Below, piece by piece: positions 1 through 64,000 of a DNA stretch of 64,000 nucleotides (its first letter is position 1; each line of letters begins with the position of its first letter). A model generated the notes under the pieces. The model saw nothing but the letters and a program-made list of their open reading frames with translations. It did no database searches and had not been told where the DNA came from. Origin of the DNA: Candidatus Omnitrophota bacterium (GTDB taxonomy: Bacteria; Omnitrophota; Gorgyraeia; Gygaellales; Profunditerraquicolaceae). The DNA lies in NCBI GenBank assembly GCA_030693145.1, contig JAUYBI010000071.1:10354-74353 (forward strand). The letters are read 5' to 3'. Position numbers and translations under genes: made by a program.

Positions 1-291
1 GCCTTTGATGCCGCTATCCGCATTAATTCGAAGTACGCGGACGCTTATTTTTACCGTGGGGTTGTTTATGCGGATAGATACAAATTTGATGAGGCTCTTT
101 TGGATTATACCAAGGCAATAGAAATTGACCCAAATTTAAGTTATGTTTATGCCAATCGCGCGATGGTGTATTTTTTAATGAAGAAATATGATAAAAGTTG
201 GGAAGATACGCATAAGGCAGTGTCGTTAGGATATAAGGTGGATGAGAAATTTCTTGTGAGCCTTAAAAAAGCTTCTAACAGAGAAAATTAA
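1..291 (+). CDS. TPR-repeat protein, 5' end outside window (a TadD-like TPR component is one possibility)
   Basis: Frame continuous from nt 1 (AFDAAIRINSKYADAYFYRGVVYADRYKFDEALLDYTKAIEIDPNLSYVYANRAMVYF...). Shows 34-aa TPR periodicity with Y/A/N spacing. Stop TAA 289-291. Listed ORF 100-291 is the same frame. Confidence 0.6.
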   Translation, partial: AFDAAIRINSKYADAYFYRGVVYADRYKFDEALLDYTKAIEIDPNLSYVYANRAMVYFLMKKYDKSWEDTHKAVSLGYKVDEKFLVSLKKASNREN

Positions 292-633
292 ATGAAAATT
301 ATTAATCAGAGCAATAGCGCGGTTTTGGCGGATAGGGCAAGGGTGGCGGATACGTTTTATAAGCGGCTGGTGGGGTTACTTAACCGTAACTCTCTGGAAA
401 AAGGAGAAGCCTTGATTTTGAAGCCCTGCTCTAGCATTCATACCCTATTTATGCGTTTTCCAATAGATGTGCTGTTTCTGGACAAAAATGGCAAGGTTAT
501 TGGCTTACTTTCCGTATTTAGGCCTTTTCGCTTTAGCCCGGTTTATTTTGGCGCGTCTTTAGCCATTGAGCTTCTGGCAGGCACCATTCAACTTACTCAA
601 ACAAAACTAGGCAATATCATTAAAATCGAATAA
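292..633 (+). CDS. DUF192-family (COG1430-like) small protein
   Basis: ORF track 292-633. Motifs PCSSIHTLFMRFPIDVLFLD and GASLAIEL resemble the DUF192 fold. Start overlaps the previous stop (TAAATG). Confidence 0.5.
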   Translation: MKIINQSNSAVLADRARVADTFYKRLVGLLNRNSLEKGEALILKPCSSIHTLFMRFPIDVLFLDKNGKVIGLLSVFRPFRFSPVYFGASLAIELLAGTIQLTQTKLGNIIKIE

Positions 634-639
634 ATAAAT

Positions 640-978: not shown

Positions 979-1182
979 ATGGCTTTTAAAAAGGCCGATA
1001 AAAGCCATTTTGCGCGAAGAAAATTCTCTAATAGAAGAGCGCAATCAATATTTGAATACGTAATACTAACGGCCGTCGTAGTGGCGGCTGTCTTAATTTT
1101 TGCGGAATCAACATATTTTAAAGGCATCAAAGATTCTTGCGAGAAGGCTTTTAATGCCGCAGTTACGGAAATAGTAAAATGA
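979..1182 (+). CDS. Flp/Fap-family prepilin-like protein (paralog 1, 67 aa)
   Basis: ATG 979 preceded by AGGGGG (966-971). N-terminus ...RRAQSIFEYVILTAVVVAAV matches the Flp class III motif (G/A-x-x-x-x-E-Y plus hydrophobic helix). Stop TGA 1180-1182. Confidence 0.6.
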   Translation: MAFKKADKSHFARRKFSNRRAQSIFEYVILTAVVVAAVLIFAESTYFKGIKDSCEKAFNAAVTEIVK

Positions 1183-1322
1183 AAAACAAAGCGCAAAGCA
1201 CCATTGAATACGCATTATTAATTGCTATTGTCGCGGCAGCATTTATCGCGATGAATATGTATATGCAGCGTTCGGTGCAGGCAAATTTTAACATTATCGA
1301 GGAGCAGATAAATACGCCGTAA
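1179..1322 (+). CDS. Flp-family prepilin (paralog 2, 47 aa)
   Basis: ATGA overlap with the previous gene. Protein MKNKAQSTIEYALLIAIVAAAFIAMNMYMQRSVQANFNIIEEQINTP. Not in the ORF track because it is under 60 aa. Confidence 0.6.
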   Translation: MKNKAQSTIEYALLIAIVAAAFIAMNMYMQRSVQANFNIIEEQINTP

Positions 1323-1341: not shown

Positions 1342-1509
1342 ATGCGCAAGAAAAAGGGCCAGAGTATCTTGGAGTATGTGATTGTATTAACGGTGATAAT
1401 TGTTGCGGTTGCCGTAGCGGCAAAGACCTTTATCGCCCAAGGAGTGAATAAGGGTTTAGAGGATGCAAAGAAGACGATTGAGTACGCCACAGGGCAATTA
1501 CCAAAGTAA
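1342..1509 (+). CDS. Flp-family prepilin (paralog 3, 55 aa)
   Basis: Strong SD AAAGGAGGAGAG (1326-1337). Protein MRKKKGQSILEYVIVLTVIIVAVAVAAKTF... with G-Q-S-x-x-E-Y motif. Confidence 0.65.
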   Translation: MRKKKGQSILEYVIVLTVIIVAVAVAAKTFIAQGVNKGLEDAKKTIEYATGQLPK

Positions 1510-1532
1510 ATTTTTTAGAGGAGGTGAAAAAG

Positions 1533-1889
1533 ATGTTGAACAGAAAGGGCCAGAATACAGCAGAATACGCGATTCTTATCGCGTTAATAATCGCCGCGGC
1601 AGTAGGAATGCAGACTTACGTTAAGAGGGGTTTACAGGGAAGGGTCAAAGAAGCAGTGAACCACACCGGTACAGCGCAAGATGTGGGTGGCGTTAATTTA
1701 ACCTTTACTGGTAATCAATATGAGCCGTATTACGCGGAATCCGATACAAAAGTAAGAAGCGAGAGAACTGCTAATGAAGAACTGGGGTATCGCGGCGCGA
1801 TTACTCGTAGTGACGTAAAAGAGGAAACCAAGGTTGATGCAGGCGGGGTTGAGACAGTCCTTAGCACAACCAGCGCTGAATCTAAATAA
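1533..1889 (+). CDS. Flp-like prepilin with C-terminal extension (118 aa)
   Basis: SD AGAGGAGGTGA then ATG 1533. Protein MLNRKGQNTAEYAILIALIIAAAVGMQTYVKRGLQGR..., same frame as ORF 1524-1889. Confidence 0.65.
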   Translation: MLNRKGQNTAEYAILIALIIAAAVGMQTYVKRGLQGRVKEAVNHTGTAQDVGGVNLTFTGNQYEPYYAESDTKVRSERTANEELGYRGAITRSDVKEETKVDAGGVETVLSTTSAESK

Positions 1890-1903: not shown

Positions 1904-2251
1904 ATGTTTAACAAAAAGGGCCAGAGCACATTAGAATATGCATTGATAACCGCAGTGATAATTGCCGGGCTTTTGCTGATGCAGCATTATATGAAGCATG
2001 GTTATGCCGGAAGATTAAAGTCAGCTAGCGATGATATTGGCGAGCAATATGACCCTACTAAACATACCGGAAAATTCAAAACAACCAGTAAGAGTTATAC
2101 AGAACAGACTCTTAAAAACAAAGCTACAACTCAAAAGTATATTGATTTAGGCGGTGCTGAATCCGGCTCTGGCAGAGTGCAGAAAAAAGAGAGTCTCGCC
2201 GATGAAAAGATTGAGGCTTGGGGTAAGGATGAGAACCTGTATAGTAAATAG
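1904..2251 (+). CDS. Flp-like prepilin with C-terminal extension (115 aa)
   Basis: SD AAGGAGGTGA then ATG 1904. Protein MFNKKGQSTLEYALITAVIIAGLLLMQHYMKHG... ORF track 1904-2251. Confidence 0.65.
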   Translation: MFNKKGQSTLEYALITAVIIAGLLLMQHYMKHGYAGRLKSASDDIGEQYDPTKHTGKFKTTSKSYTEQTLKNKATTQKYIDLGGAESGSGRVQKKESLADEKIEAWGKDENLYSK

Positions 2252-2564
2252 AATATCGAGAATAAGCAGGGCGCAAAGCGTGGCTGAATATAGCATTTGT
2301 CTGGCATTAGTTTTAGCCGCGGTTTTGGGCATGCAGCTTTATGTAAAAAGGGGTTTGCAGGGAAGATACCGGGAATTGGTAGATCATGCAGCTAAACAGG
2401 CCGCAAGCCCTAAACAATATGAGCCATACTATGTCCGGGACAAATTTACAGTTAAGCAATTTAAAATAGTTAATGAGGATATGAAATATGAAGGTTTGAC
2501 AACCCGGGATTCTCTTGAAGATAGCACAGAAGTCAAAGGCACAGCCAAAAGGGATGTGCAATAA
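2229..2564 (+). CDS. Flp-like prepilin with C-terminal extension (about 111 aa); start uncertain (ATG 2202 or 2229)
   Basis: Frame of ORF 2154-2564. Protein ...RAQSVAEYSICLALVLAAVLGMQLYVKRGLQGR... Its 5' end overlaps the 3' end of the previous gene by 23-50 nt. Confidence 0.45.
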   Translation: MRTCIVNRISRISRAQSVAEYSICLALVLAAVLGMQLYVKRGLQGRYRELVDHAAKQAASPKQYEPYYVRDKFTVKQFKIVNEDMKYEGLTTRDSLEDSTEVKGTAKRDVQ

Positions 2565-2565
2565 A

Positions 2566-3681
2566 ATGAAAATGCGCAAAATCGGCCAGAGTATAAATGA
2601 ATATGTGTTGGTAATTGTCCTGGTTACTTTAGCCGGGATAGGTATGCAGAGTTATATTAAGCGGGGCATACAGGGTATAGTAAAAACCTCTGCCGATACA
2701 TTGGCCGGAGAGCAAACAGAGGGTAGAATCGAGGTGGATGAAGCAACCAGGGCGTGGCATCCGCTGGCAACAGCATATAAGGATAAATTGATCGCCGGAG
2801 AATTCTTTATTAGAGAGCGGGCAGGCAATAGTTTTTATTATAATGTTTATATCGAGGATCCCGATAATCCAACGAAAATAAAGAAAGACCGCGGCATTGG
2901 CATAGAAGATATTGCTACGGGTAATTTTACCAGTTTGGATATAGACGGTAATCCTCTGCCGGTGGTCTACGATAAAGATGGCAAGGTTTTGACAGGGGTT
3001 CAAGGAGCCGCCTATGTTCAACAAGGAGTAATTGAGTCTGGATTAGTTAAATTTGAATATAAAAATCCCAAAGATCCTAAAAATCCTTTAAAGTTTAAGT
3101 CAGACAAAAAAATCACCGTGGATACCCTTTCAAAGTATAGCGGCCCGAAAAGTTTAGCGTCAGCGGATTGGCATCCGGCAATGACAGCGTATAAAGAAAG
3201 AATGGAAAGAGATAAGATCAAGGGATTTATTCAAACAGAAATAAAAGGCAGCCGGGTTTATTACTACCAGTTTACCACCGACCCTAAAGACAGGACGCTT
3301 ATCGGCGGAGAGAATACCCGCACAGGTGATTTTACCGGATTTGACCCGGATGGGTTTCCTCTATCAACCGTAGACAGTAAACTCACAGTACTTAGGACCT
3401 ACTCCGGTTATGTGAAGGACCCGGAAACAGAAGAAATTGTGGGGGTAACCGGCAGCGATGGCAATATTTATGGGCAACATGAGATAGTAACAATAAGTCG
3501 TGTGCTTCCAAGCATCGGACCGGCAACGGTTGCCTCTCCGATGAGAACCAAGATCATAGATAAGGACACGGCTCAGACTACCGGCGCTTGGGAGGCAACT
3601 TATAAATTAGAGGGTGCAGGCACATTCGGCGCGCTGGAAAAGCAAAAAGGTAAGGCAACACCGCCCGGTGGCACTCCATAA
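2566..3681 (+). CDS. large Flp-like prepilin-domain protein (371 aa) with internally duplicated C-terminal domain
   Basis: ATG 2566 directly after the previous TAA. Protein MKMRKIGQSINEYVLVIVLVTLAGIGMQSYIKRGIQG... Internal repeat WHPLATAYKDK... / WHPAMTAYKER... and GNFTSLDIDGNPLP / GDFTGFDPDGFPL. Confidence 0.6.
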   Translation: MKMRKIGQSINEYVLVIVLVTLAGIGMQSYIKRGIQGIVKTSADTLAGEQTEGRIEVDEATRAWHPLATAYKDKLIAGEFFIRERAGNSFYYNVYIEDPDNPTKIKKDRGIGIEDIATGNFTSLDIDGNPLPVVYDKDGKVLTGVQGAAYVQQGVIESGLVKFEYKNPKDPKNPLKFKSDKKITVDTLSKYSGPKSLASADWHPAMTAYKERMERDKIKGFIQTEIKGSRVYYYQFTTDPKDRTLIGGENTRTGDFTGFDPDGFPLSTVDSKLTVLRTYSGYVKDPETEEIVGVTGSDGNIYGQHEIVTISRVLPSIGPATVASPMRTKIIDKDTAQTTGAWEATYKLEGAGTFGALEKQKGKATPPGGTP

Positions 3682-3691: not shown

Positions 3692-4078
3692 ATGATAATA
3701 CAAATTAAAAAATATGGCTCAGCTAAGGCAAGCGCGCAATCGACATTGGAATACGCCATGGTAGTTGCCTGCGTAGTGGCAGCGCTTTTAGGGATGCAGT
3801 TTTACCTCAGGCGGGGAGTGCAGGGTAAACTCAGGCAGGCAGGAGATGAGTTAGGCGAACAATATACACCGTTGAATGTGGAGTCAAAAATTATCACAGA
3901 AACAACTTCCACCACAGGGATAATACAATCTTTAGTTCCCTTGGACAAGGACGGCAAACCTTTGCTTGATCAATATGGTTTGCCTGTCTACGGAATGAAG
4001 ACAGAGGCAAGTATTGATGAGACTACCGAGAAAAGCGGAAAAGAAACATTAGGGGAATTTGAAGATGGTTTATTTTAA
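3692..4078 (+). CDS. Flp-like prepilin with C-terminal extension (128 aa)
   Basis: ATG 3692 in the frame of ORF 3614-4078. Protein MIIQIKKYGSAKASAQSTLEYAMVVACVVAALLGMQFYLRRGVQG... Confidence 0.55.
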   Translation: MIIQIKKYGSAKASAQSTLEYAMVVACVVAALLGMQFYLRRGVQGKLRQAGDELGEQYTPLNVESKIITETTSTTGIIQSLVPLDKDGKPLLDQYGLPVYGMKTEASIDETTEKSGKETLGEFEDGLF

Positions 4079-5084
4079 TAAAAAAGCGCAGACCCTGACG
4101 GAATTGGCAACCTTTGGTTCGATTCTTTTATTGGTTTTGTCTTTTTTGATCAGTTACGGAGTGCGCTATAATTACCAGCAGGATATGCAGATGGCTGCTT
4201 TTCGCCGGGCGTTATCTGAAGCACATGCTTCCGGCCGGCCGGATGCCTCAGCTTCGGTGGTGATGGTTGAAGACAAGCATATTCCTGATCCGCGCGATAT
4301 GTTTGGCGCGGGTAGTGTTGTTTCCATGCAAGCCGGCGCAGAGGTGGCCTGGGGTAATACTATGCAGGATCAATATGACATTAGCAATGAGTCACTTTTG
4401 CCCAGAGTAAAATACGTGTTTAACGATAAAGACGTGGCGAAGAGAGTAGAGCGCGAATACACGACTGCGGGCTATGGTTTTATTGCCAATGGCACTGAAT
4501 TTTACGCGATACTTCCCGGTAATAATGAACCAGAGTTGATAAGCTGGTCAAATGTGAAATGTTACCAGCCTACCCCGGATTCTCCTAAGCAGGCAATGGT
4601 ATTGCTGCCGGATAATGAGAAAGAGGTAATTACTGAGGTTTATTTGAAGCCGGCGGGCGCGGGTTCGGCGAAGAAGTTTATAAAATATCAGATTATTGGA
4701 GTGGAGACTATTCCGCCGGTTCCGCCGGATGGTTCTGACGGGAAGCCTATTGACTGGATAAGTTTATTAAGACCGGATTTTGGCGGGATTAATCCTAATT
4801 ATATGCAATTAAATAGTGATGTGGACAGGGACGGTATCCCGGATGTAACGCAGGATAATGTCCAGGGGGTATTGTTGGACTCAGAGCAGAAGATCAAGCG
4901 CAGAGGTACGCTGACCATAGAAGAAACTCCCGGGACAAGCGCAAGTACCGCCGCATACAGTTTTAAGGATAAAGCCGGAAATCCCACGACAATTATCCAT
5001 AAAATTAGGAGCAGCTCGGGGGTGGAAAATATAAGCTCTCCTTTTGAAAGGAATAGAGTATCGGAATGGAAAATTACCAAGTAA
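4065..5084 (+). CDS. TadE/TadG-like pseudopilin (340 aa)
   Basis: ATG 4065 after AGGGGA. N-terminus MVYFNKKAQTLTELATFGSILLLVLSFLISYGV...AAFRRAL resembles the TadE-like domain (hydrophobic segment then a Q..AA.R motif). ORF track 4059-5084. Confidence 0.55.
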   Translation: MVYFNKKAQTLTELATFGSILLLVLSFLISYGVRYNYQQDMQMAAFRRALSEAHASGRPDASASVVMVEDKHIPDPRDMFGAGSVVSMQAGAEVAWGNTMQDQYDISNESLLPRVKYVFNDKDVAKRVEREYTTAGYGFIANGTEFYAILPGNNEPELISWSNVKCYQPTPDSPKQAMVLLPDNEKEVITEVYLKPAGAGSAKKFIKYQIIGVETIPPVPPDGSDGKPIDWISLLRPDFGGINPNYMQLNSDVDRDGIPDVTQDNVQGVLLDSEQKIKRRGTLTIEETPGTSASTAAYSFKDKAGNPTTIIHKIRSSSGVENISSPFERNRVSEWKITK

Positions 5085-5317
5085 AAGCCCAGGTCGCGCT
5101 TGAATTTACCACTGCTTTCATTTGCCTGATCCTTTTTTTGGTGGCGACCACGCAAATATTTGTCTGGTTCGGGAATAATATTGTGCAACGGCATAAACAG
5201 TATGAAAGTACGCGCACGACCGTAGCGGCTGATGGCACCACCGCGCCTCCGAAGATAGATTTTTATACGCCTAAGAATTTAAACATATTCGGGAAACCGG
5301 AAGAGCTGCCGAAATAA
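5066..5317 (+). CDS. TadE-like pseudopilin, small (83 aa)
   Basis: Protein MENYQVKAQVALEFTTAFICLILFLVATTQIFVWFGNN... has the TadE-like N-terminal pattern. ORF track 5066-5317. Confidence 0.5.
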   Translation: MENYQVKAQVALEFTTAFICLILFLVATTQIFVWFGNNIVQRHKQYESTRTTVAADGTTAPPKIDFYTPKNLNIFGKPEELPK

Positions 5318-5322: not shown

Positions 5323-5529
5323 ATGAGAAAAAAAGGGATGAGCGTGGTAGAATATAGTTTACTGATTGCGATTGTAATCGCCGGGCTTTTGGCAATGCAA
5401 GTTTATGTTAAACGGGCTGTAAGCGGCCGCTGGAAGGAAGCCGGAGATGTGTTTGGTTTTGGCAGGCAAACGTCCAGGACCCTTCTAAAACCGCAGCCAC
5501 CAGGCGGCGGCGGATTACCGGGAATGTAA
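5323..5529 (+). CDS. Flp-family prepilin (paralog, 68 aa)
   Basis: Protein MRKKGMSVVEYSLLIAIVIAGLLAMQVYVKRAVSGR... ORF track 5323-5529. Confidence 0.65.
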   Translation: MRKKGMSVVEYSLLIAIVIAGLLAMQVYVKRAVSGRWKEAGDVFGFGRQTSRTLLKPQPPGGGGLPGM

Positions 5530-5531: not shown

Positions 5532-6377
5532 ATGAGACTACTAATTATTTTGCTTATTTTTGGATCAATCGCTGGTTTGGCGTATGAATTGATTCCTCTA
5601 CTTTTAGGCCGCTATTCCCAGCTGCAGGGCAAGCGTATGGAAAATGCCTCCAAGGAATTGCATAAGATGTTTATTTATACTGAAAAGCGCCGTTTACTAT
5701 CTGTGTTTACGATTACGCCTTTGGTGCTGGGCACGCTGGGATTTATGATCTTAAATAATCCATTTGGTGTTTTAGTGGGCGTAGGCCTGGGTTTGTTATT
5801 GCCCCGGATATGGATTAAAAATATGGGCCGAAAAAGGCTGAATAATTTCGCCAAGCAGTTGGTAGATGCGCTGATGCTTCTTTCCAGCTCGCTTAAGGCG
5901 GGGATGAGTTTACCCCAGGCATTTGAGGTGCTTACCGAAGAAATGCCCGCGCCAATTAGCGATGAGTTTGCCCTGGTGATCAAAGAAAATAAAATGGGCG
6001 TAAGCTTAGAAGATTGCCTGGCGCATCTTAAGCAAAGAATACCTTTAGATGATTTGGAATTATTGACTACCGCTATCAGCATCTCCCGGGAAACCGGAGG
6101 TGACTTGACTGAAATTTTCGGGAATTTAGTGCATACCATTAGGGAAAAAAGAAAATTAGATGACCGTGTAAGGATACTCACTGTGCAGGGGCGGCTGCAG
6201 GGGGCGATTATGGGCCTTTTGCCGATTGCCTTTGGGGTTTTTATGTATTTCACTAACCCGGGCAATTTTGACATCATGCTTAAAGATAAAACCGGCCAGA
6301 TGCTGCTTGCCTGGGCGGTGATTTCCGAAATAATCGGGATAATTTTAATCCGGAAATTAAGCCGGGTGGAGATATAA
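5532..6377 (+). CDS. tadB: Tad pilus assembly inner-membrane platform protein, T2SS-F domain (TadB-like)
   Basis: Protein with an N-terminal TM, the T2SSF-type region LLSSSLKAGMSLPQAFEVLTEEMPAPISDEF...RETGGDLTEIF, and C-terminal TMs. ORF track 5532-6377. Confidence 0.7.
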   Translation: MRLLIILLIFGSIAGLAYELIPLLLGRYSQLQGKRMENASKELHKMFIYTEKRRLLSVFTITPLVLGTLGFMILNNPFGVLVGVGLGLLLPRIWIKNMGRKRLNNFAKQLVDALMLLSSSLKAGMSLPQAFEVLTEEMPAPISDEFALVIKENKMGVSLEDCLAHLKQRIPLDDLELLTTAISISRETGGDLTEIFGNLVHTIREKRKLDDRVRILTVQGRLQGAIMGLLPIAFGVFMYFTNPGNFDIMLKDKTGQMLLAWAVISEIIGIILIRKLSRVEI

Positions 6378-6379: not shown

Positions 6380-7261
6380 ATGGAACTCGCGCTGATTATT
6401 TTTTTGTTGTTTATCAGTATTGGATTTGCGGCCTATCATATTTCTAACCGTAAGCTGGTGGAAGAGGTGCATCTGCCTTCTGAGATTACCGGCCCGTCGG
6501 CCTCCGGGCTAAAAGCATTTAATTTTAAAAATATTTTAAGCGGGCCGGTCAGTTTTATCGAGCGCCTGTTCGGCAAATCTATGCTCTCTTTCACTTCGAG
6601 CGATTTGCATAAACGCTTAGCTTCCTCAAATAATAAAATGAGCGCCAGCCAGTTTATGATATTAAAATTGTTTATGGCCGGGGCAGTGCCGCTGGGTGCT
6701 TTTATTGCTGTTCACGCAGAACTCCTGATACTGATTATTTGCGCCGGCGTTGGTTTTATTTCACCGGACATCTGGCTGAATAACTTGATTAAGAAAAGGC
6801 GCGCCCTGATTGTGAAAGACCTGCCTTTGGTAATTGACCTTTTGAATATCTGCGTAGGGGCAGGCCTGGATTTTATGGTGGCGGTTAACCGGGTAATTCA
6901 GGAATTCAGGCCCTGCGCGCTGATTGAGGAAATGAAGATAATGGCCCACGAAATACAAATGGGCAGTGCCCGGCGTGATGCGTTAAAGAATATGTCCAAT
7001 CGCATCAATAATCCTGAGATCAGCTCGTTTGTGAGGACGCTTTTACAGGCAGACAGGATCGGCTCGCCTATTAGCGAGGCATTAAAGATGCAGTCAGAGG
7101 AAATCCGCCTGCGCTGGTTCCAAAGAGGCGAAGAGATGGCCTTAAAAGCTCCGATTAAGCTGTTATTTCCCCTGTTGGTATTTATCCTTCCAGTAGTTTT
7201 AATCATTGTTGCCGGCCCTATTTTGCTACAGTTTACCCAGGGCGGAATGATGAAATTCTAA
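6380..7261 (+). CDS. tadC: Tad pilus assembly inner-membrane platform protein, T2SS-F domain (TadC-like)
   Basis: Second T2SSF-domain protein immediately downstream. Region LPLVIDLLNICVGAGLDFMVAVNRV...ADRIGSPISEAL with terminal TMs. ORF track 6380-7261. Confidence 0.7.
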   Translation: MELALIIFLLFISIGFAAYHISNRKLVEEVHLPSEITGPSASGLKAFNFKNILSGPVSFIERLFGKSMLSFTSSDLHKRLASSNNKMSASQFMILKLFMAGAVPLGAFIAVHAELLILIICAGVGFISPDIWLNNLIKKRRALIVKDLPLVIDLLNICVGAGLDFMVAVNRVIQEFRPCALIEEMKIMAHEIQMGSARRDALKNMSNRINNPEISSFVRTLLQADRIGSPISEALKMQSEEIRLRWFQRGEEMALKAPIKLLFPLLVFILPVVLIIVAGPILLQFTQGGMMKF

Positions 7262-7321
7262 GCTAAATAGACTTTTTTAAATACACCTTTAAATTTTACT
7301 TGACTTTTTTAAATATCTACG

Positions 7322-7372
7322 AATACGACCCTGTTTCCCAGCCAATCGGGAAATAGGGTCGTATTTTTGTCG
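7322..7372 (+). terminator. intrinsic-terminator-like hairpin (repeat family D) after tadC
   Basis: aatacgaccctgtttccc-agccaatc-gggaaatagggtcgtatt forms an 18-bp stem, followed by TTTTTG. Half-copies occur at 811-830 and 8021-8047. Confidence 0.5.
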
Positions 7373-7456
7373 GTGCCCCTATTAAAATTGTCCAGTCTGT
7401 TTTTTAGTTAGATTTAATTGATTATTACGTCAATTATATTAGAAAGGAGAGCTTAA

Positions 7457-7969
7457 ATGAACGCAAAAGAGATTTCGGCAGAAGTAGTGGCAATGAAGAT
7501 TTTGTTGGTGAGGGGCAGAAAGGTGATGTTGGATAGGGATTTGGCAGAGATGTATGGTGTAAAGACTAAAGTTCTTTTGCAAAGTGTAAAGCGAAATGCA
7601 AAAAGGTTCCCGGAAGATTTTATGTATCAGCTTATAAAACAAGAGGTTGCCATCTTGAGGTCACAAAATGTGACCTCAAGATGGGGTGGTAGAAGATATT
7701 TACCGTATGTATTTACTGAGCAAGGCGTAGCAATGCTTTCTACAGTTTTGAATTCTGAACGCGCAATCCAGGTTAATATCGCTATTATGCGGGCATTCGT
7801 AAAGCTGCGCGAAGTCTTGTTAACGCATAAGGACTTAGCGCAGAAACTTGAGGAATTGGAACGGAAATACCAATTGCATGAGACAGATATCCAGGCAATA
7901 TTCGAGGCGATTAAGAGATTAATTGAACCGCCGGATGAGCCTCCCAAGCCACGGTTTGGGATGAATTGA
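7457..7969 (+). CDS. ORF6N-domain protein (KilA-N/ORF6N superfamily, phage/mobile-element-associated regulator-like)
   Basis: Protein MLDRDLAEMYGVKTKVLLQSVKRNAKRFPEDFMYQL...SRWGGRRYLPYVFTEQGVAMLSTVLNSERAIQVNIAIMRAFVKLR matches the ORF6N signature. SD AGGAGAG upstream. Confidence 0.65.
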   Translation: MNAKEISAEVVAMKILLVRGRKVMLDRDLAEMYGVKTKVLLQSVKRNAKRFPEDFMYQLIKQEVAILRSQNVTSRWGGRRYLPYVFTEQGVAMLSTVLNSERAIQVNIAIMRAFVKLREVLLTHKDLAQKLEELERKYQLHETDIQAIFEAIKRLIEPPDEPPKPRFGMN

Positions 7970-8042
7970 GATTGCCTACGGCCCCATTTTCCTATCAGGC
8001 TTGAAACAGTTTCTTAGCCAATCGGGAAATAGGGTCGTATTT

Positions 8043-8105
8043 TTTTGTCCAGTCTGTGAAATAAATTCTAATTATTGTCCATTCTAATTTGATATTTGTC
8101 CAATC
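8043..8105. repeat. three spaced copies of TTGTCCA(G/T/A)TC
   Basis: ttgtccagtctg ... ttgtccattctaa ... ttgtccaatcaga, read directly. Same motif as the 640-690 array. Confidence 0.4.
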
Positions 8106-8134
8106 AGATTTGTTTAAGCTGCCTAATGGCAGGT

Positions 8135-8170: not shown

Positions 8171-8188
8171 GCAGGGCGACCGAAGAAT

Positions 8189-8216
8189 AGTAGGGGAGGT
8201 TTAAACCTCCCCTACT
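8189..8216. repeat. family A palindrome AGTAGGGGAGGTTTAAACCTCCCCTACT
   Basis: Perfect 28-nt palindrome. Stem bases differ from the 744-771 copy by compensatory changes (GTGG/CCAC to GGAG/CTCC). Confidence 0.55.
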
Positions 8217-8225
8217 GAAAATAAT

Positions 8226-8273
8226 GGGACCGTTTCTATTTTTCGAAAAGTATCGAAAAATAGAAACGGTCCC
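8226..8273. repeat. family B hairpin element, perfect 21-bp inverted repeat (gggaccgtttctatttttcga / tcgaaaaatagaaacggtccc)
   Basis: Read directly. Related copies at 697-720 (half), 9566-9618 and 24954-25003. Confidence 0.55.
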
Positions 8274-8358: not shown

Positions 8359-8388
8359 TTGACAGCGTCTATCCGGGGTGTTATATTT
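8359..8388 (+). promoter_or_regulatory. candidate sigma70-type promoter (TTGACA - 16/18 nt - TTATAT/TATATT) upstream of the giant gene
   Basis: ttgacagcgtctatccggggtgttatatt read directly, about 280 nt upstream of ATG 8669. A weak hairpin plus T-run at 8505-8529 lies in the leader. Confidence 0.35.
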
Positions 8389-8668
8389 GAGTGTAAATAG
8401 AAAAGGTGCAAAAGGTAAACTTAGAGTAATCTAAGGACACAAAGCCACGGATCCTAAAATCAAGAAATAGTGTCAAGGACAGCCGGGTTGCCAGTACCGA
8501 CGAAAGTTGGAGCTGACAACTCATTTTTTATTTAAGAACTTAATAAAAAATTTTAAAAACGTTTTAGTAATCTGTAACCTTATGCAAAGAAGCTTCATTA
8601 AAAAAATGAAAAGTCTTGGGGTAAGGGGAAGTATTTATTTTTTATTTAATACTACAGGTAAGTAAAAA

Positions 8669-53600: not shown

Positions 53601-56600
53601 AGATAGAAAACCTTAACCTCAGACAAAACCGTTTCTTCTCAGAGATAAGCCGGCAGATTGGCTCTGAGTTGATAGCAACTGACGAAGGCAAATATTATTT
53701 CATGCTTGATGTCCGTCATCCGTTTACAAAAGAAGAGTCATTGAGAAAGGTCCTTATGACTATTAATTCTGTGCTCTTAAAGAAATATGGTTTTGAGTTA
53801 AGGGCTCGCGTTGAGCAGGATATCCGGGCATTCAGTATTTCCCTTGCCGCGCAATATTATGATGAGAGGGGGGTAAATAGCCAAGAAGGATACAACCGGA
53901 TTATGGAAGAATTAAGCGGACTTATTAAAAACAGTAAAGCCAGAGGCGGTAATACATTGACATTCAAGGGCGTAACAAAAATTAAAGCCAAGGATGCGGC
54001 TAAACCGGTTTCTCCTGAAAAGCCCAATTATCAAGCAGGAGCTTTCCCGAAAGATATGAAAGAAGTATTAGAAAAATTAGGAATAGAGTTTACTGATGAG
54101 ATGTTGGTTGCTCTTCTAGCCCTTAAAGGCGGAGAGTGGGGAGGGCTGGATTATGAAGTCAGGAAAATTCTGTTTAAGATGTTGGAGAATGATTATGAGA
54201 TATTGATCGGCAGGAGGAAGAATTTAACTGCTCAAGAAGTGCTTATTGTATGGGGTAAGACCGGCATATTAGATAGATTGAATCGTCTGAAGAAATATGT
54301 GGAAGACGACAAAGAGGCGGTAAAAAAGATTGAACAAGCAATTGCTTATGTGGATGTGAATGTGAATAAGTTGAAAGGAAAAGATTTTGAAGATTGGCTT
54401 GGAAAAGCAAAAGAAGAATTGAAAGAATTCGTTGAGCGGAAAGATAGGGGGCAACTTAGAGAGAATGAGAAGTGTGCTTTCAATAATGTCCATTTTGCCG
54501 CGCTTAATTTCCTCTGGGGTTACTTAAAGGATGACATCCAACTCCTTATATTAAAGAGAAAGCCCGGTATTTCAAGAATACAAACGTTGGAAAGATTTAG
54601 GATCACAGAGGCGGAAGTTAAGGATTTGTTGAAAGCTAAAGCCGGAAAAGCTAAAACCGCTATTATTGTGGACAAGATAGATGATTTAACCGAGCAGGAT
54701 TTCCTTAATATTATTGTCGGAGAAGCCCAGACGCTCTCTAAGCCCACTACATTAAGAGGTGAAATCGGTTATCAGCTTCTCTATGGCCATCTCAGCAAGA
54801 CCGTAAAAGAGGCCAGGGGGTTAAACTCTGTTCCTTCCCGCGCAATCTATGCCGGCGCTAATGCCGTCCATTGCCCGTGGCAGGATGAATTAGCTAGAGA
54901 AGAAAAAGTTTGGAATAGCGAAATCAAAAGCATGCTATCCGAGACATTTAAGCCGTATAATCCCCTTGCTCCTCCTGAAGGAGAAAAAATTACAGATATT
55001 GAAGAAGCATATCAGCCAACTCTTAAGGGAAATAAAGAATTCTCTACCCCTGATACAATAATTGAGAAGTTAACTGGCGCGCTTAATGATTTTGAAAAAC
55101 AACCCAATCTTACTCCGCATCAAAAATACCTCTTAGAAATAAGAACCTATGCTTTTATTAAAGCTATAAAAGAAGCTTACGCAGGAGCGGACAAGGACAA
55201 ATACACCTACTTCCATGCGCTTGTAGCGATTAACGCGTTTCTCGTCTTCATCGCCCGATACCTGAAAAATAAATCTAATGATTACCTGAATATTTATATC
55301 GCTAGGGACGCAGCCAACTATTATACGGCAGGATATATTCTCGCCGAAGACAAAGAAACATTTACAAAAAATAATAAAATATTCTATCTTTCCCGGGCTA
55401 AATTAGGCCACGCGCATCAAGTAATGATTGCCCTGTTAAGGGAATCATTACAGGAAGCTGATAAGAATGATTTCTGGAAAATCCTTTCCGCCAAATTCGC
55501 GAAGGCAATGCAGGAAGATAAGGAATTTAAACTTATCGCGGATGAACTTTATGCGGAGATTGAGCTTTTAACCAAAGATTCAGAGAAAAATAAAACCCGG
55601 ATTATTGAAAGTATGGCGCAGGGCGTGATTACCGCTTTTGTCAAAGCTCTGATCATTAACAAGGAAAACTTAACAAAGACAGAAGAGTATGAATCCATTG
55701 AAGAATTTATCGCCGCTCCGAAATACAGCGAAGAAGTAAAGGAATTAGAGATAAAGGCAAGGAAAATTGATACTCTTGAGATGTTTGAGTTATTCAAGGA
55801 TGAGGTGGGTAAATGGTTGGGCAGATACGGCCTCAAGTTTACTGGCAAGATAGTAACTTTGGAGGAGAAGAATAAGGAAGATATGTGGAATGCCGCTAAG
55901 ATTCTCTTGGATGTCCTGCAAGCTCAGGCGTATCATCTTTTCTATCCTTTCTCCGAAGTTAATTTAGGCCATCCGATAGAATACAGGGAGGGCAAGATTG
56001 TAGAACCTTCCGCGGTTAAACAACTCGGTTTCTTACTGCGCGAAATCCTCTTGGTTAATGCCGCTATAGATATAAAAGAAGAGGATAAAAATAAGGACTT
56101 TAAGCCCACAGCGGAAAATATAGCGGAAGACTTCAATCCTAATAGTTTCCTGCCTGAAGAATATGAGCTTAATGAAGAAGGCAAGGAACTCTTTAACTTT
56201 ATTGTCATTAAACATCATGAAGTTTTCGCGACCGCCTCTGACCAATCACAGGAAGGCTTGCTTATCCGCCTTGCCGGATGGATAAAGCTGATGGAAATCC
56301 ACGGCTGCGATATAAAAGAGGTAACAGAAGGTATCAAATCCGGCCATAACGATTCGAAGTATTTTTACCAATTCGAGCGCTTCCTCTTTGAATTCCGCCA
56401 GTTTGAATCCGAGGATGATTACTATTCCACATTTATCTGGTTTGCCGGCAGGAAGGGCTGGACCATTGGCAATGTTGACGAAGCAATGGACAGCGCTAAC
56501 GCGCTTAAAGCCTTAAGGGAGAAAGTCGCGGTTGAAAAACGTCCTCGCGCTGACCGTTTAAAGATAACCGACATTTACGGCGAAGAAAAGATGGCGGGTG

Positions 56601-59600
56601 CGGCAGGAACTAATCCCGCCGCTGTCTTGGTAAGGAAGCTGGAAGCCAAGCCGGTATCGGCTGAGGTAGTAGAAGCAAAGGATGCGTTCAGGGGGTTATT
56701 AAAAGATATAGAAGATTTATCGGTAGCGGGTAGCAAAGGATTGGATAAAATTACTGAAGAGTTTAGCAGATTAAAGACAACATATAATGAACAGCTCAAA
56801 AAAGATAATAAAAATGATGAGTTATTGCTGATAGTAAAAGAAGTAGAGATGAGAGTGGCGAAAATAAAAGTTGGTATACTTAATTCAAAAGCAGAGGAAT
56901 CTCAAATTACCGATGGCGAAGGGATATTGGTTAAGTTGAAAAATAATTCAGAAAATTTGAGCAAAGGAGTTGAAGATTCTAAAGCACAATATAAGGATAC
57001 GTCTGCGATAGTTAGCGAGGTAAAGGAAACAGTAAGAACAAAAGAAGCGCAATTCAGGCTTGCATATTTATTCGAGAAGATAAAGAATATGTCCCCGTTG
57101 TCAAATGAGCAAATACAGCAAGTAAATAATCTTATATCGGAATTAAGGGTATTTAAGTTTCAATACCGCGGTTTGCTTAGAAATGGAGATATAGCTAAGA
57201 TTGCGGAGAAAGAGGTTGAGCTATTTTTAATAAAGGTGCAAGCTTTAGTTCAACTTAAAGATGACAAGAAACAGCAGGCGCGTTTCAGTAAAGAGTTGAG
57301 AGAGATTGTCAGTGAATTCAGGGTTTTGAAACATGAGTACAGAGATTTCTTGGATAATGAAAAACTTCATCAGCAGATTGATCTTATTAATCCGAACCTC
57401 ACAGAATGTGTTGAGGAAGAATTTTCCCTTTTCACAAAAAAGGTTAGAACTTTATCTAGACTCACAGGACTTGGGCGTTTAGTTGGAAAATTGAGAGAAA
57501 TCGCCGGTTGGTTCCTTAAAGATACAAGAATTCGTCAGCAGATCAATGGTATTAAGAACAGGTTTATTGAATATTTCAAAGTAGAGTTTTCGTTCTTGTC
57601 GAGCAAGGTTGAAACCCTATCTATACTTAAAGATAAGAAACGTTTCAGCAAGGAGCTAAAACAGATTGTTGGTGAGTTCAGGGTTTTGAAACATGAGTAC
57701 AGAGATTTCATGGATAATGAAAAACTTCATCAGCAAGTTGGTCTTATTAATCCGAACCTCACAGAATGTGTTAAGGAAGAGCTTACTCTTTTCTCAAAAA
57801 AGGTTAAAACTTTATCTAAACTCACAGTTGGTAAGCGTTTAGTTAGAAAATTGAGAAAAATCGCGGGTTGGTTCCTTGGAAATAAAAAGCAGCAGGTATA
57901 TTTCAGCAAAGAGTTAAGAGAGGTTATCAGTGAGTTCGGGTTTTTGAAAGATGAGTATAGAGATTTCTTGGATAACGGAGAACTTCATCAGCAGGTTGAT
58001 ATTATTAATCAGAACCTCATAGAATATCTTAAGAAAAAATTCTCATTTTTCTCAAATAAGGTCGAAGCCTTATCTAAACTCAAGGACAAAAAGCATTTTA
58101 GTAAAGAGCTAAAAGAACTTATCAATGAGTTCAGAGGGTTAAGGTATGAATACAGAGATTTCTTGGATGATAAGGTTATCCGCCCGCAGGTAGAAGGAAT
58201 TAATCAAGAGCTTGTTAAACAGCTTAAGAAAAAATTTTCATTTTTCTCAAACAAGGTTGAAACTTTATTTAATGGGCGGTTTGAACGCTTCGGTAAAGAA
58301 CTAAGAAAGATTGCGTCCGGCTTCTTAAAAGATAAAAAGATTCCTCAGCAAATTATGAGTATTAGAAATAAGTTTGGTGAGTATTTTAAGGCAGAACTTT
58401 TGTTCTTGTCGAAAAATAAACTTGAACATTCCAGCAAGAAGCTAAAAGAGATGTTTGATGAGTTTAGGGTATTAAAATTTGAATACAGAGATTTCTTGAA
58501 TGATGAAAAACTTCGTCAGCAGGTCGAAAATATTAATACAAGGCTTATTGAGCATAAGGAAGATATAGAATGTCTATTAACAAAAATTAAAGTGTCTTCT
58601 GTGCAGAAAGATGCTGTTCAGCAGTTAAACAGCTCAAATCGTGATGGCGGCAAATTTTCTACTTTTCGAGAATATAATAAAGTATTTTCTTCTTTGCCGT
58701 TAATGTTTCTGTCCTCTGGGCTATCTGGTATTATGGGGGATTTGGTAGCCTCAGTTGTTATTGCCATTATTATTATGGTTATTGTGGTTATTCTCAAAAT
58801 TATTGAAGATATTAAAAATTCAAATTTATTATCATTGAGTTATTGGGTAGACGAATCTATTTATTATTATTTAGAAGTTAGAGAATCTCTAGCTAAATCT
58901 ATAGTTAAATATTTAGGGCGGTATAAAACTAATTGGGTATTTGCGTTTCTTACGAAAGAGTTGAATGATACAAATGCAGGGGTCCGTAATGCTGCAGTAG
59001 AAGCCCTTGGAAGACTTGGAAATCAAAGAGCAGTTGAGCCGCTAATCGCAGCGTTGGGTGATAATGATAGATATGTCCGCTCCTCTGCCGCCAAAGCCTT
59101 AGGCAATCTTGGCGACAAACACGCTATCGAACCTTTGATTAAGATATTGGGTGATAATATTATTTTTGTCCGCGAAGCCTTAGTGAAAATCGGCCAACCA
59201 GCAGTAGAACCTTTGACTAAGGCATTAGGTGATAAAAGTTCCCATGTCCGCTCCGAAGCCGCTAAGGCTTTAGAGAAATTAGGCGCCTTAACCACTGAGC
59301 TTAAAATTAGGAAATATATTAATGATTTAAGTGATAATGCTAGTTTTGTCCGCTACTTTGCCGCCGAAAACTTGGGTAATCTTGGTGACAAGCGTGCAGT
59401 TGAGCCTCTAATTAAGCTATTAAGTGATAGTAATTGCGATGTCCGTTCCTATGCTGCCAATGCCTTAGTAAAAATCGGCCAACCAGCAGTCGAGCTTTTG
59501 ATTAAGGCGTTAGGTGATAACAATAACGGTGTCCGCAAATCTGCCGCCGAAGTCTTAGAGAAATTAGCCGTTTTAACTCCCGAGCTTAAAGTTACGAGGT

Positions 59601-62600
59601 ATATTAAAGACTTAGATGATAATGATAACGATGTTCGTGCATCTGCCGTCAAAACCCTAGGAAGTCTTGGTGACAAACGCGCCATCGAGCCTTTGATTAA
59701 AGCATTATTAGCTGATAGCGGTGGCTCTGTCTGTAAATCCATAGCTATAGCCTTAGGCGAAATCAAAGACCCAAGAGCAGTTGCACCGTTGATCGTAGCA
59801 CTGGGGGACAAAAATAATAATGTTCGCTACTACTCTGCAATAGCTCTTCTTAAGATATCTCAAGATTCTGGAATTATTGCAAAAGCAAATAAGGTAATAG
59901 AGGATATAGATCGAGAATTGGAAGCAGAAAGTTCTTATTCAAGCGATGATTCTGATGATAGATCTTCATCAGATGACGGTGATTACGAATTTGAATGTCC
60001 TGAAGATGTAGAAGCACACGAAGAAAATCGAAGGTGGATGCGAGACAGAGATACATTTGGTAAATTAATAGGCCTTGCAAGAGATTGCGGATTAGAAGAC
60101 CCCGAAGCCAGAGGAAGCCGAAGCTCGGGGAGAAACGTAAGGTCCAAGAGCGATTATGATATTTCTTTGTCAGGTTCTAGAACCGTGTTACGAAGTGAGC
60201 TTATGGAAGAAGATTCTCGCGTAAGGGAATTCGTAAAGCGTGCTTCTGAAATAACTGGTAAAAAGGTTGATGTATATCGTGAGCATAGAGAAAAATCTAG
60301 TGATACAGATCATGAATCCGATTATACCTATGATGATTGTGGTTTGGGTATTTATACTGCCGAGGGCAAAGTTGATGATGATGCACAGGAGAAAACAGCC
60401 GCGGAAATTAAAGACGCGCAAGAAAATGAACGGCTGAAAAAATTCAGCGAGCTGGATAAGAAAACGCAGGAGGAATATGAAAACAAAGGAGTTAAAACCC
60501 TGCTTTCAAAAGACAATCTGTTTATTGTTTTGCCCGGAGAGGAAGACAATAACGCGCCTTTCCTTTGGTATGAGAATGAAGATAGATTCACAGTTGCCGC
60601 AACATCGGACGGGAACATTTATATTCCTCAATCATTGATTGACGCCTTACTTGCTATCGGACAGATTGGCTTGCTGGAGAAAATAATTAACCATGAAGAA
60701 AATGACTTAAAGAGCGGAGAGAATAAAAAGGAAGCCGAACAAATAGCCCAGTTGATTAAGAAAGAATTATTCCAGAAAGATTTCTTTGTCGGGATTTCTC
60801 CGACTTTTGTCAAAGACGGCAGGAATTATTCATATCAGGAATTAATTAAAGAATTAGACCATAATAAGGCAAAAGAATACCTGACTAAATGGCAGGAATT
60901 GGTGAGCGGGAAATTTGAGCTGGCAGGGATTATAAAAACAGCTCTGATTGACGGAAAATTTTATGAATTAAAGGGAGAAAGGGGCTCGATGCTTTTCTTT
61001 GTGGTTAGAGAAGAGCAGGAACTGGTGGAATATAAGATTATCGAGATCGTTGACGCGGTTACAAAGGCATTTGAAAAAGACGGCTTTAAGGCCGAGAATT
61101 TCTTAAGCTATTTTGAAATCTCGCTGGATAGCATGGACAGCAATGATATTTTTCTGATGTGGCAGGCATATTATACGGCGGAGTTGAAGGCAACCTTTAC
61201 CACTGCTTCGGGAAATCAGATAGCTAAGACAAGTTTTGGTGAGATTGCCCAAGCGAATAAGCGGTCAAAGGAAGAGCCTGTTTATTTGGAGAAGCGCGAG
61301 AAATCTTATGAGAAAGCGTTAGATTATAAGGTAACAAATTTAGCTGATACAAGGCTTATTGGGTTAAAGACAGCGGAGAAAGAGAGCAAAAATGAAATAG
61401 TCGCCTCAATTACCGCCAGAGAAAAAGAGTCACCTGCCGATGAGGCGCTGAACGTTGATGATTATCTGGTGTATTTCAGATGGGCGGTCAGGCATAATAT
61501 TGGAACAGGCACGGTTTTGGCGCATGAAGTTTTGGATTTATACAGTATCGAAATCGATGACTTAATCCGGTTGACACGAGAAGCTGCAGGATATTTGGGA
61601 AGCGAGTCTGAGGCAGTCAGGTATCTTAGAGAAGCGTTAGAATATAAATTTGCTGAGGGATTGGGTATAAAAGAAAATGTGCAGAAAACATTAGCTCAAA
61701 TGTGGACAGTTTTACTGGAAGGTTTGATTACGCCGGCGTTCTTCGAGACGGCAGTTAAATCAGTTAAGGTAGGAAAAATTGAAGGCGTAGAAGATAAAGA
61801 ATACGAAGCAATCCTCAATTTCATTTTAGGCAATAAAGATGAGATTAGCAATATAAGCGGTATGCCAATACAGGATATTTTAGGTTTAGTGGCTTCACGC
61901 ATAATCAATATTGTCGGGCAGGTAAGGTCAGGAAAGAGTACTTTGGCCAAAAAGTTATATAAATTATTCTTTGATCAGTGCAAAGATGTTGTGCTGGTGG
62001 ATATTGGTTTGATTTATCGCGCCTACGCGTTGTTTATTAAAGAGCTAGTGGATAATGGAGACGCCAGCGTATTGGCTTCGGAAGAAAATATTATCTGGGT
62101 TTTAAGAAAAGCGAATGTGGAAGTCCGGGGAAAGAATGTTTACTTAAACGGAAGCGGCTTATCCGATACCCGGTTGCACGATGCTAGCGTGGAGGATGTC
62201 CTCACTAAGATTACTACTGATAAGCCGAAGGTCAAGGCTTTTCTGCAGGAAAAAGACCGGGAAATCGTCAATCGTATTCCTAAGACAACCTGGGTAATCA
62301 TTTCCAGCCGCGGTTTCTATCCGCAGGCAGGCATGAATATTTATTTGGCCGCGGACATTGAAGAAAGAACTAAGAGGGCATTTATCGCTAAAGGCAAGAA
62401 AGCAGAAAAAATTAACCAAGAGTTTATTAATAGTAAGGAGTTTAATGACGAGAAGGGAAAAATCGAAGATAGAGATTTCAAGGATAGAAGCGATGAAAAC
62501 CTGCGTAAATATCCGGGAATCTTTACCTTAATTGATACTACTGGCAAAGATTCTGATAGAGTTTTAAGCGAAGTCACAAAAATGCTTAAGAAATATGATG

Positions 62601-64000: not shown

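Follow-up and report, generated by a model that had tools for sequence, protein, structure and literature searches.

A c-di-GMP-I-class riboswitch candidate in the leader of a giant gene that follows a Tad-like pilus cassette in Omnitrophota

The DNA analyzed here, referred to as the window, is a stretch of 64,000 nucleotides (nt) of contig JAUYBI010000071.1, assigned to Candidatus Omnitrophota, in which a set of Tad-like pilus genes is followed by a giant open reading frame (ORF) whose leader carries an aptamer of the cyclic di-GMP-I (c-di-GMP-I, or GEMM-I) riboswitch class. Genes in the window were called with Pfam profiles against curated cut-offs, and pilin and TadE genes by N-terminal motif and context. 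The G+C content across the window was 34-46%, every gene upstream of the giant ORF lay on the + strand, and the window contained no tRNA gene. The giant ORF is a single stop-free frame from 8666 to 64000 (18,445 codons), open at its 3' end, which from its conserved start ATG at 8669 encodes at least 18,444 amino acids (aa) (8669..64000, + strand). An earlier note on this DNA had placed a giant gene directly downstream of a Tad-like locus, and this frame bore it out. The same note had reported that only an ORF6N gene and a repeat-rich spacer of 700 bp lie between the two. The ORF6N gene (7457..7969, + strand; PF10543, 119 bits), accessory or mobile DNA inserted downstream of tadC and ahead of the giant-gene leader, and a spacer of 699 nt up to the giant ATG (7970-8668) were indeed present; the spacer, however, is not made of repeats only, since a promoter candidate, a riboswitch aptamer and a terminator-like hairpin lie inside it.

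The promoter candidate is of the sigma-70 type (8359..8387, + strand) and agrees with the consensus at 11 of 12 positions, with TTGACA, a spacing of 17 nt and TATATT, preceded by the TG of an extended -10 element. The aptamer (8405..8496, + strand) starts 18 nt past the -10 hexamer, and 172 nt separate its end from the ATG. It matched Rfam family RF03167 with 61.1 bits (gathering score 59, E = 8.5e-13) and scored 85.5 bits with R1, a covariance model that we built from six strong copies and ran on 19 related loci. An intrinsic-terminator-like hairpin with a U tract follows as the candidate expression platform (8485..8533, + strand; hairpin 8485-8522, free energy -19.8 kcal/mol, then UUUUUUAUUU), and its left arm, GGGUUG, is part of the 3' strand of the aptamer.

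Farther upstream, the spacer holds a 28-nt palindromic repeat element (8189..8216, unstranded; GTAGGGSAGGTTTAAACCTSCCCTAC), which recurs within the giant ORF at 9203-9230 and 9798-9823. The three copies (26-28 nt; none expected), one in the spacer and two in frame within the ORF, include two that fall where the window protein has extra residues relative to several homologues, in a variable insert. A perfect 21-bp inverted repeat forming a hairpin with a 6-nt loop (8226..8273, unstranded) lies between ORF6N and the giant-gene promoter and may be a terminator, an insulator or another repeat element.

To place the locus among its relatives, one genome per GTDB species was scanned with a TadC alignment, which yielded 16 loci; three long metagenome contigs (L019-L021) brought the set to 19. 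At the equivalent leader position, Rfam models of the riboswitch class matched at or above their gathering scores in the window and in L005, L006, L009, L010 and L017, the last four of these reaching 42-59 bits with RF01051 (gathering score 35). With R1, an aptamer was found in the giant-gene leader of 14 of the 19 loci, eight of these matches being strong (65-104 bits). The motifs CAAAGCC and AAAAGG were invariant in the six strong copies, whichever Rfam model had matched. Among 21 aligned copies, 91.9% of cells could pair, compared with 77% after shuffling and no more than 50% in controls with slid pairing, and changes on both sides were seen in 14 of the 18 aptamer pairs, in an alignment that was itself fitted to the model; the structure is thus supported by covariation. 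A hairpin and U tract followed the aptamer in 11 of the 14 leaders, and in most of them the left arm of the hairpin includes aptamer bases. The whole order of promoter, aptamer and terminator is conserved in the window, L003 and L005, and the sequence farther upstream diverges; both promoter hexamers are invariant in L003 and L005, and the L005 terminator is conserved with a change that preserves stem pairing. One further R1 match, inside the giant ORF of the window (50602-50708, 30.9 bits), was rejected as spurious, since Rfam finds nothing there.

In six loci, R1 found the same aptamer immediately ahead of the first pilin gene (L017 4391-4557, L008 2694-2786, L006 1001-1106, L014 2067-2168, L010 2760-2838 and L021 2624-2696). 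The L017 copy was validated by Rfam at 59 bits and the L008 copy reached 32 bits, the others being weaker. In L014, the giant gene begins 37 nt past tadC, and the sole riboswitch precedes the pilins.

The GEMM name of this class refers to the genes with which it is associated, those for the environment, membranes and motility (Sherlock and Breaker 2020, PMC7266159). The window element resembles known members such as Vc2 of Vibrio cholerae (Rfam clan CL00126) in sequence and structure at the gathering score, in its place in a 5' leader with an intrinsic terminator and in its association with pilus and surface-protein genes. It differs from them in preceding a gene that exceeds 55 kb and belongs to an uncultured phylum, and in having as its best model the variant RF03167, with c-di-GMP as presumed ligand. 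Neither of the two giant-gene papers discussed below mentions a riboswitch, and a literature search combining riboswitch with Omnitroph* returned only unrelated papers. In the literature searched, we have not found a promoter, a riboswitch or an overlapping terminator of a giant-gene leader described.

The TadC of the window is 100% identical to MDP3042665.1 from a Candidatus Omnitrophota metagenome-assembled genome (MAG). Among the 1,157 TadC homologues, those listed with a name were Omnitrophota or Omnitrophica MAGs or 'tight adherence protein C' (JGI), and 11 of the 16 related GTDB loci carry Omnitrophota titles. Since the TadC identity and most of the related genome records point to Omnitrophota MAGs, the window is assigned to an Omnitrophota genome on protein similarity. 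The same cassette was also seen in L008, L009, L012, L017 and L018, whose records name Planctomycetales, Dehalococcoidia, Deltaproteobacteria or a Methanosarcinales archaeon; the probable explanation is that Omnitrophota contigs were mis-binned or mislabelled.

The linkage between the pilus genes and the giant gene is widely conserved among these relatives. In 13 of the 16 loci from the GTDB scan, a large ORF begins 37-2,500 nt past tadC and runs to the end of the available sequence. The N-terminal module of the window protein, about 370 aa long, is common to all 13 of these open-ended ORFs and to an ORF of 893-941 aa in L017, at 26-76% identity; over the whole set, a gene with this module follows tadC in 17 of the 19 loci. 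The linkage persists where TadC identity has dropped to about 51% and the giant N-termini share only about 26-35% of their residues, and the upstream gene order is conserved as well. In a search of 1.84 billion representatives (HMMER, E ≤ 1e-3), the N-terminal module family comprised 271 clusters at 50% identity, mostly fragments, of up to 7,820 aa.

Two loci, L003 and L011 (TadC 94% identical), have intact pilus genes but lack the giant gene. We rejected them as counter-examples to the linkage: they retain the promoter, riboswitch and terminator leader of the giant gene, and their homology to the window stops about 10 nt before the ATG, beside an insertion sequence (IS) transposase gene. The retained leader and the break next to the IS therefore show secondary loss rather than independence. 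Gene order might nonetheless simply be inherited without functional coupling, the giant gene being a separate transcription unit. Such an explanation would account for the ORF6N insertion, the 21-bp hairpin and the separate promoter between tadC and the giant gene, for the spacers of 0.2-2.8 kb in most loci, and for the two loci just described. It sits poorly with an order kept in 17 of 19 loci over the range of divergence given above, with the same riboswitch class standing before both units in six loci, and with the gap of only 37 nt behind a single pilin-side riboswitch in L014, and we regard it as improbable.

ORF6N itself is missing at this position in most related loci and is duplicated, together with a ParE/Phd pair, in L002 and L004. 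As a separate observation, the stretch from tadC to the leader is a hot spot for accessory genes (window 7262-8330, L002 10883-13375, L003 10841-16040 and L017 10868-13475), with a cargo of ORF6N (two copies in L002), a ParE/Phd pair, an AAA ATPase and an IS transposase.

The association of giant genes with such loci is on record. According to West-Roberts et al. 2023 (bioRxiv 10.1101/2023.11.21.568195, section 11), the giant genes of Omnitrophota, there defined by predicted proteins of more than 30,000 aa, as a rule lie downstream of a locus resembling type II secretion systems (T2SS) or type IV pili, with many small genes for class-III signal peptides; PilZ genes follow most giants, and sugar-uptake genes are found downstream too. 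The same authors report that C39 domains, which might cleave the protein, lie close to the N-terminal signal peptides of full-length giants, that all giants have many transmembrane regions, that HEAT repeats are the commonest domain and that most giants contain a divergent SecA-DEAD domain. GGDEF domains have been noted in other giants in this literature. In a 2026 preprint (10.64898/2026.06.07.730766), secretion or pilus genes flank 13 of 14 giants, and a 24-member architecture cluster with PF03412 is described. The linkage of Tad genes and giant genes, the C39 N-terminus, the transmembrane content and the HEAT repeats are thus already described for Omnitrophota. The earlier note had found the sequence compatible with an Omnitrophota-like lineage, had pointed to reports of giant genes near tad loci and had called for a comparison of synteny across related genomes. 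The lineage, the published reports and the linkage were all borne out; the novelty that it implied did not survive, because the arrangement is common in this lineage and has been described.

On the pilus side, the window begins with a fragment of a tetratricopeptide repeat (TPR) gene (100-291) and a DUF192 gene (292..633; PF02643, 59 bits), the first conserved gene of the cassette; these and the genes that follow are all on the + strand. Eleven ORFs have a class-III/Flp-type N-terminus, nine of them pilin-like and two TadE-like. In the nine, the motif [G/A]-[Q/M]-[S/N]-x-x-E-Y is followed by at least 13 hydrophobic or small residues out of 15, as expected of Tad prepilins. The first (979..1182), whose start codon is uncertain, has AQSIFEY at nt 1039 with a hydrophobic stretch and a sub-threshold Class_IIIsignal match of 14 bits. 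It is followed by gene 2 (1179..1322, 47 aa), with AQSTIEY at nt 1191 and matches to Flp_Fap (20.8 bits, cut-off 32.2) and Class_IIIsignal (18.8 bits, cut-off 23.7); gene 3 (1342..1509, 55 aa), with GQSILEY at nt 1357 and a sub-threshold N_methyl match; gene 4 (1524..1889, 121 aa), with GQNTAEY at nt 1548 and a sub-threshold Class_IIIsignal match of 16.6 bits; and gene 5 (1904..2251, 115 aa), with GQSTLEY at nt 1919. The start of gene 6 (2202..2564, about 120 aa; AQSVAEY at nt 2271) was set after a relative, a 120-aa gene being called at the matching place in L002. Gene 7 is large (2515..3681, about 386-388 aa; GQSINEY at nt 2584), matches no Pfam family and has an ortholog in every locus that holds a pilin array. 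Gene 8 (3692..4078, about 128 aa) has AQSTLEY at nt 3734, and gene 9 (5323..5529, 68 aa), which lies just before tadB, has GMSVVEY at nt 5335.

The two TadE-like minor pilin candidates lie between genes 8 and 9. Both have a hydrophobic N-terminus with A-Q-x-x-x-E-[L/F] at the position expected for TadE, and neither matched the TadE family PF07811. The larger (4059..5084, 341 aa; N-terminus KKAQTLTELATFGSILLLVL, motif at 4086; no Pfam family) is conserved in position across loci, and the smaller (5066..5317, 83 aa) begins with KAQVALEFTTAFICLILFLV, its motif being at 5087. Since the Pfam thresholds were not reached, the pilin and TadE genes are putative, assigned by motif and context. A TadB-like (5532..6377, 65 bits) and a TadC-like platform protein (6380..7261, 54.7 bits) complete the set; both matched PF00482 (T2SSF) above threshold, the pair expected of a Tad platform. 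The earlier note was therefore right about TadB and TadC upstream on the same strand and about the two TadE-like genes, and its ten Flp-like prepilins became nine, in keeping with L002, the closest annotated relative, where likewise 11 genes in total lie between DUF192 and TadB. As a side observation, the gene between pilin array and TadB in L021 (6358-8961, 867 aa) has a Peptidase_M23 domain, of the cell-wall-cutting type, and the window gene at this position (4059-5084) has no recognisable domain.

The head of the cassette is best seen in the three long contigs L019-L021 (TadC 56-57% identical), where the order is secretin, TadZ-TadA, DUF192, about 11 small genes, TadB, TadC and giant gene. 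The TadZ (ParA-like) and TadA (T2SSE) parts are fused in one protein of 724 aa directly before DUF192 in all three, and a secretin lies upstream of this ATPase in L019 and L020. One of the three giants is present in full, with 32,492 aa, and the other two run off their contigs. DUF192 also precedes the pilin array in L003, L004, L008, L010, L012 and L016, with other genes intervening in some. We note in passing that DUF192 is a constant member of the cassette between TadZ-TadA and the pilins (L019 2728-3069, L020 3213-3551, L021 1168-1512). In the clade that the window forms with L002 and L004, DUF192 is preceded by a TPR gene and a GH3/PIG-L gene rather than by ATPase and secretin, and in L002 no ATPase or TadZ was found within 10 kb upstream of the cassette.

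The cassette is akin to the Tad/Flp (Cpa) pili of Aggregatibacter actinomycetemcomitans and Caulobacter crescentus in its pilins, with Gly/Ala, four residues, Glu-Tyr and a hydrophobic helix, in its pair of TadB/TadC paralogs and, in the relatives, in its TadZ/ParA-like domain, TadA ATPase and secretin. It differs from them in having 11 pilin-like genes instead of one to three, which miss the Flp_Fap and TadE thresholds, in the fusion of TadZ and TadA (seen in the relatives), in the DUF192 gene within the cassette and in the lack of a prepilin peptidase in the cluster; the window, in addition, is without ATPase and secretin.

A different reading of these genes is that they form a type-II-secretion-like pseudopilus machine that exports the giant protein, whole or in fragments, through the outer membrane; the locus would then consist of a secretion system and its substrate. 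West-Roberts et al. do call the upstream genes a secretion system with gspD/E/F homologues; the 11 different pilin-like genes, large minor-pilin candidates among them, resemble a set of pseudopilins more than one major Flp pilin; the cassette is headed by a secretin and an ATPase in relatives; and the giant gene always follows the machine genes. However, platform proteins paired as TadB/TadC and an ATPase joined to a TadZ/ParA-like domain are of the Tad type and not the Gsp type, and some 38 membrane segments in the giant protein argue that it stays in the inner membrane and is not released. We keep a secretion machine as a tentative, less likely alternative to the Tad-like pilus.

The giant protein begins with a signal anchor or signal peptide (aa 26-46, 8744..8806, + strand; WIRAVAFIVIAVFLPEQAAQA), which ends in AAQA before MGYDP and is conserved in 15 of 15 homologues; a conserved box, a variable insert and a C39 peptidase domain come next, and aa 400-4900 match no Pfam family. 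A hydropathy scan, a crude method and not a topology predictor, gave about 38 segments with a Kyte-Doolittle value of at least 1.7 over 19 aa. About 29 of them form transmembrane cluster I (aa 4914-9155, 23408..36133), with embedded enzyme domains; cluster II is at aa 12816-13932 (47114..50464), and a single strong segment (Kyte-Doolittle 3.24) lies at aa 16694-16712 (58748..58804). All features of the protein are on the + strand. The enzyme-like domains comprise an ICMT/PEMT-like membrane methyltransferase (25757..26035; PF04191 42 bits, PF04140 37.6 bits), a borderline signal peptidase II-like domain (26189..26656; PF01252, 25.7 bits, cut-off 25), a peptidase M28 domain (28379..28960; PF04389, 99 bits) and a GNAT acetyltransferase domain (33881..34141; PF00583, 50-53 bits). 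A sequon-rich block follows (aa 9300-11250, 36566..42418), picked out by its N-x-S/T count and without a Pfam family, inside which lies a tandem repeat of 4 x 354 nt (118 aa; 39413..40802; Tandem Repeats Finder score 1848, units 90% identical). A model of the 118-aa unit was all-beta, at low confidence (predicted local distance difference test, pLDDT, 43.7). Toward the end of the available sequence are an array of HEAT repeats (58883..59866; PF13646, 180-187 bits) and a cytidylate-kinase-like P-loop domain (61907..62590; PF02224, 44-47 bits).

The signal anchor and the repeat-containing, sequon-rich region of about 6 kb had both been predicted in the earlier note and were recovered. Its picture of a simply signal-anchored surface protein was not, given the roughly 38 further hydrophobic segments and the embedded enzyme domains. 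The protein is like the Omnitrophota giants of the 'Archaeovorin' type in phylum, in the gspF/TadBC-type and class-III-signal-peptide genes upstream, in its signal sequence and C39 domain, its many membrane helices and its HEAT, peptidase, methyltransferase and acetyltransferase domains; it differs in that the ORF is cut by the window end after 18,444 aa and in that secretin and ATPase are not adjacent in the lineage of the window.

Could the giant ORF be an artefact of assembly or gene calling? Metagenome assembly may collapse or chimerise repeats, and the window has the 4 x 354-nt tandem repeat and short palindromes. Against this stand 18,445 sense codons in a row at about 40% G+C, which are impossible by chance, homologous ORFs of 1,500-32,492 aa at the equivalent position in independent assemblies from other samples, and real domains in frame along the whole length; we consider an artefact extremely unlikely.

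The C39 domain (double-glycine type cysteine peptidase; 9281..9793; PF03412, 29 bits, cut-off 22) was missed when Pfam was run on pieces of 5000 aa and was recovered above threshold in pieces of 700-1000 aa; a full rescan in 1000-aa pieces added no other domain. Giant proteins should accordingly be scanned in short pieces (in the window, the C39 domain was lost in the 5000-aa piece at 8669-23668). Cys227 and His329 are invariant in 15 loci and five database proteins. The predicted structure (pLDDT 70.6) matched the fold of the peptidase (PEP) domains of LahT150, PCAT1 and ComA (Foldseek against 6mpz: E = 1.5e-5, target-normalised TM-score 0.67). From the Cys/His pair and the papain-like fold, the C39 peptidase is predicted to be catalytically intact. 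It shares the fold and the catalytic Cys and His with the C39 domains of the peptidase-containing ABC transporters PCAT1, ComA and LahT, with the difference that here it comes after the N-terminal signal anchor of a giant membrane protein and does not head an ABC transporter.

D-G-G occurs 22 times in the giant ORF, compared with 4.8 ± 2.2 expected, with G-G overall at expectation (96 compared with 93). The sites span aa 2300-16659, and 21 of the 22 lie within aa 2300-8669, several of them directly before hydrophobic segments. Close relatives show the same excess (P0128, 19 compared with 1.8; P0130, 8 compared with 1.9), and distant members of the N-terminal family have none. These tripeptides could be candidate cleavage sites for the C39 double-glycine peptidase; West-Roberts et al. 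raised C39 cleavage as a possibility and gave no site motif. On this basis the giant ORF may chiefly encode a polyprotein, made of enzymes and membrane modules cut apart by its own N-terminal C39 peptidase, instead of one giant adhesin. A C39 domain with invariant Cys and His and the right fold, the D-G-G excess and its recurrence in P0128 and P0130, and a domain content that is a mix of unrelated enzymes all fit such a product. Yet the enrichment is absent from distant family members, some D-G-G sites lie within internal repeats, which makes part of the counts dependent on one another, the residues preceding the sites are unlike a classical double-glycine leader, and a C39 domain outside the membrane could not reach cytoplasmic sites. 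A polyprotein thus seems possible to us but doubtful as the chief nature of the product.

In the sequon-rich block, N-x-S/T was counted 108 times, compared with 39.4 ± 5.0 in residue shuffles (2.7-fold), and control motifs in the same region were at shuffle level (S/T-x-N 43, N-x-x-S/T 43, N-S/T 31). The excess was also present outside the tandem repeat. Over aa 1-4900 (8669-23368), by contrast, N-x-S/T was depleted (17 compared with 40 ± 5.7 expected), and this depletion is shared by the closest relatives, not by the distant ones. With the motif at 2.7 times expectation in this block and at below half the expected count over the N-terminal 4,900 aa, the skew could reflect selection on N-glycosylation sites. 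Neither giant-gene paper mentions the N-x-S/T skew or the D-G-G enrichment.

Taken together, we consider it probable that this Omnitrophota window contains the downstream half of a conserved Tad-like pilus and giant-gene cassette, with the giant gene under the control of a c-di-GMP-I-class riboswitch. The order seen in relatives runs from secretin and TadZ-TadA fusion ATPase through DUF192, about 11 pilin-like genes, TadB and TadC to the giant gene; in the lineage of the window, secretin and ATPase are not directly upstream, and ORF6N has been inserted past tadC. In the proposed model, the giant gene would form its own transcription unit with a near-consensus promoter, the riboswitch and a terminator. 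At high c-di-GMP, the aptamer would fold, the terminator would be blocked and polymerase would read on into the giant gene, which is more than 55 kb long in the window. Since ligand binding would block a terminator that overlaps the aptamer, we infer an ON switch. The pilus genes and the giant gene appear, from the relatives, to be one c-di-GMP-controlled attachment regulon, because relatives have either a second riboswitch before the first pilin gene or a giant gene 37 nt past tadC behind a single riboswitch.

The product is a protein of the 'Archaeovorin'-like class with an N-terminal C39 domain, consisting of anchor, C39, a domain-free region of 4,500 aa, helix clusters with methyltransferase, M28 and acetyltransferase domains, the sequon-rich block, HEAT repeats and the kinase-like P-loop domain. 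Pilus and giant protein may cooperate in cell attachment or predation, as the earlier note had proposed and as is likewise conjectured in the literature, and the giant protein may be processed by C39 and glycosylated. The fullest version of this scheme, in which the pilus and giant genes are one GEMM-I-switched c-di-GMP regulon, the product in this lineage is a polyprotein cut at D-G-G by its own C39 and one extracytoplasmic block is N-glycosylated, is speculative, and we consider it less likely than not; its regulon part was found neither in the two giant-gene papers nor in the other literature searched. LapA of Pseudomonas fluorescens, a type-I-secreted RTX adhesin, is under post-translational control by LapD and LapG. 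The resemblance to it is one of logic only, in that a very large repeat-bearing surface protein depends on c-di-GMP for its presence at the surface; here the control would be exerted by a riboswitch at the level of transcription, and the protein is polytopic with enzyme domains.

Several observations weigh against the proposed arrangement. On the riboswitch side, the best model for the window aptamer is the variant RF03167, for which c-di-GMP is a presumed ligand, a doubt offset by the two motifs that are invariant in the six strong copies; the other six of the 14 leader matches with R1 were weak (16-30 bits); L004, the closest relative that retains the giant gene, has no aptamer; R1 found none anywhere in L007, L013 and L018 and none in the giant-gene leader of L014; and no riboswitch was found upstream of the pilin genes of the window, even with filters off. 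On the pilus side, all pilin-like genes of the window missed the Flp_Fap (PF04964) threshold (best 20.8 bits, cut-off 32.2) and the Class_IIIsignal threshold (at most 18.8 bits, cut-off 23.7). The Pfam scan found no TadA/CpaF ATPase, TadZ/CpaE, secretin (RcpA/CpaC) or prepilin peptidase within the window, and a prepilin peptidase (TadV/CpaA, Peptidase_A24) was found in no related locus inspected. As for the protein, SecA-DEAD (PF07517) had no match in its first 18,444 aa, in chunks of either 5000 aa or 1000 aa.

The giant genes of Omnitrophota are among the longest genes known, in a group with essentially one enrichment culture and no genetics. To their linkage with pilus genes the window adds one more example only. 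Through the D-G-G and N-x-S/T statistics it offers concrete predictions for proteomics, namely cleavage sites and glycosylation sites. Since, in relatives, the aptamer precedes the pilin genes as well as the giant gene, a shared response can be argued independently of gene order, and the riboswitch is in line with the PilZ genes and GGDEF domains noted around giant genes. It is an RNA of about 100 nt whose binding of c-di-GMP can be tested in vitro without growing the organism, and the regulation of a giant gene would thus become testable.

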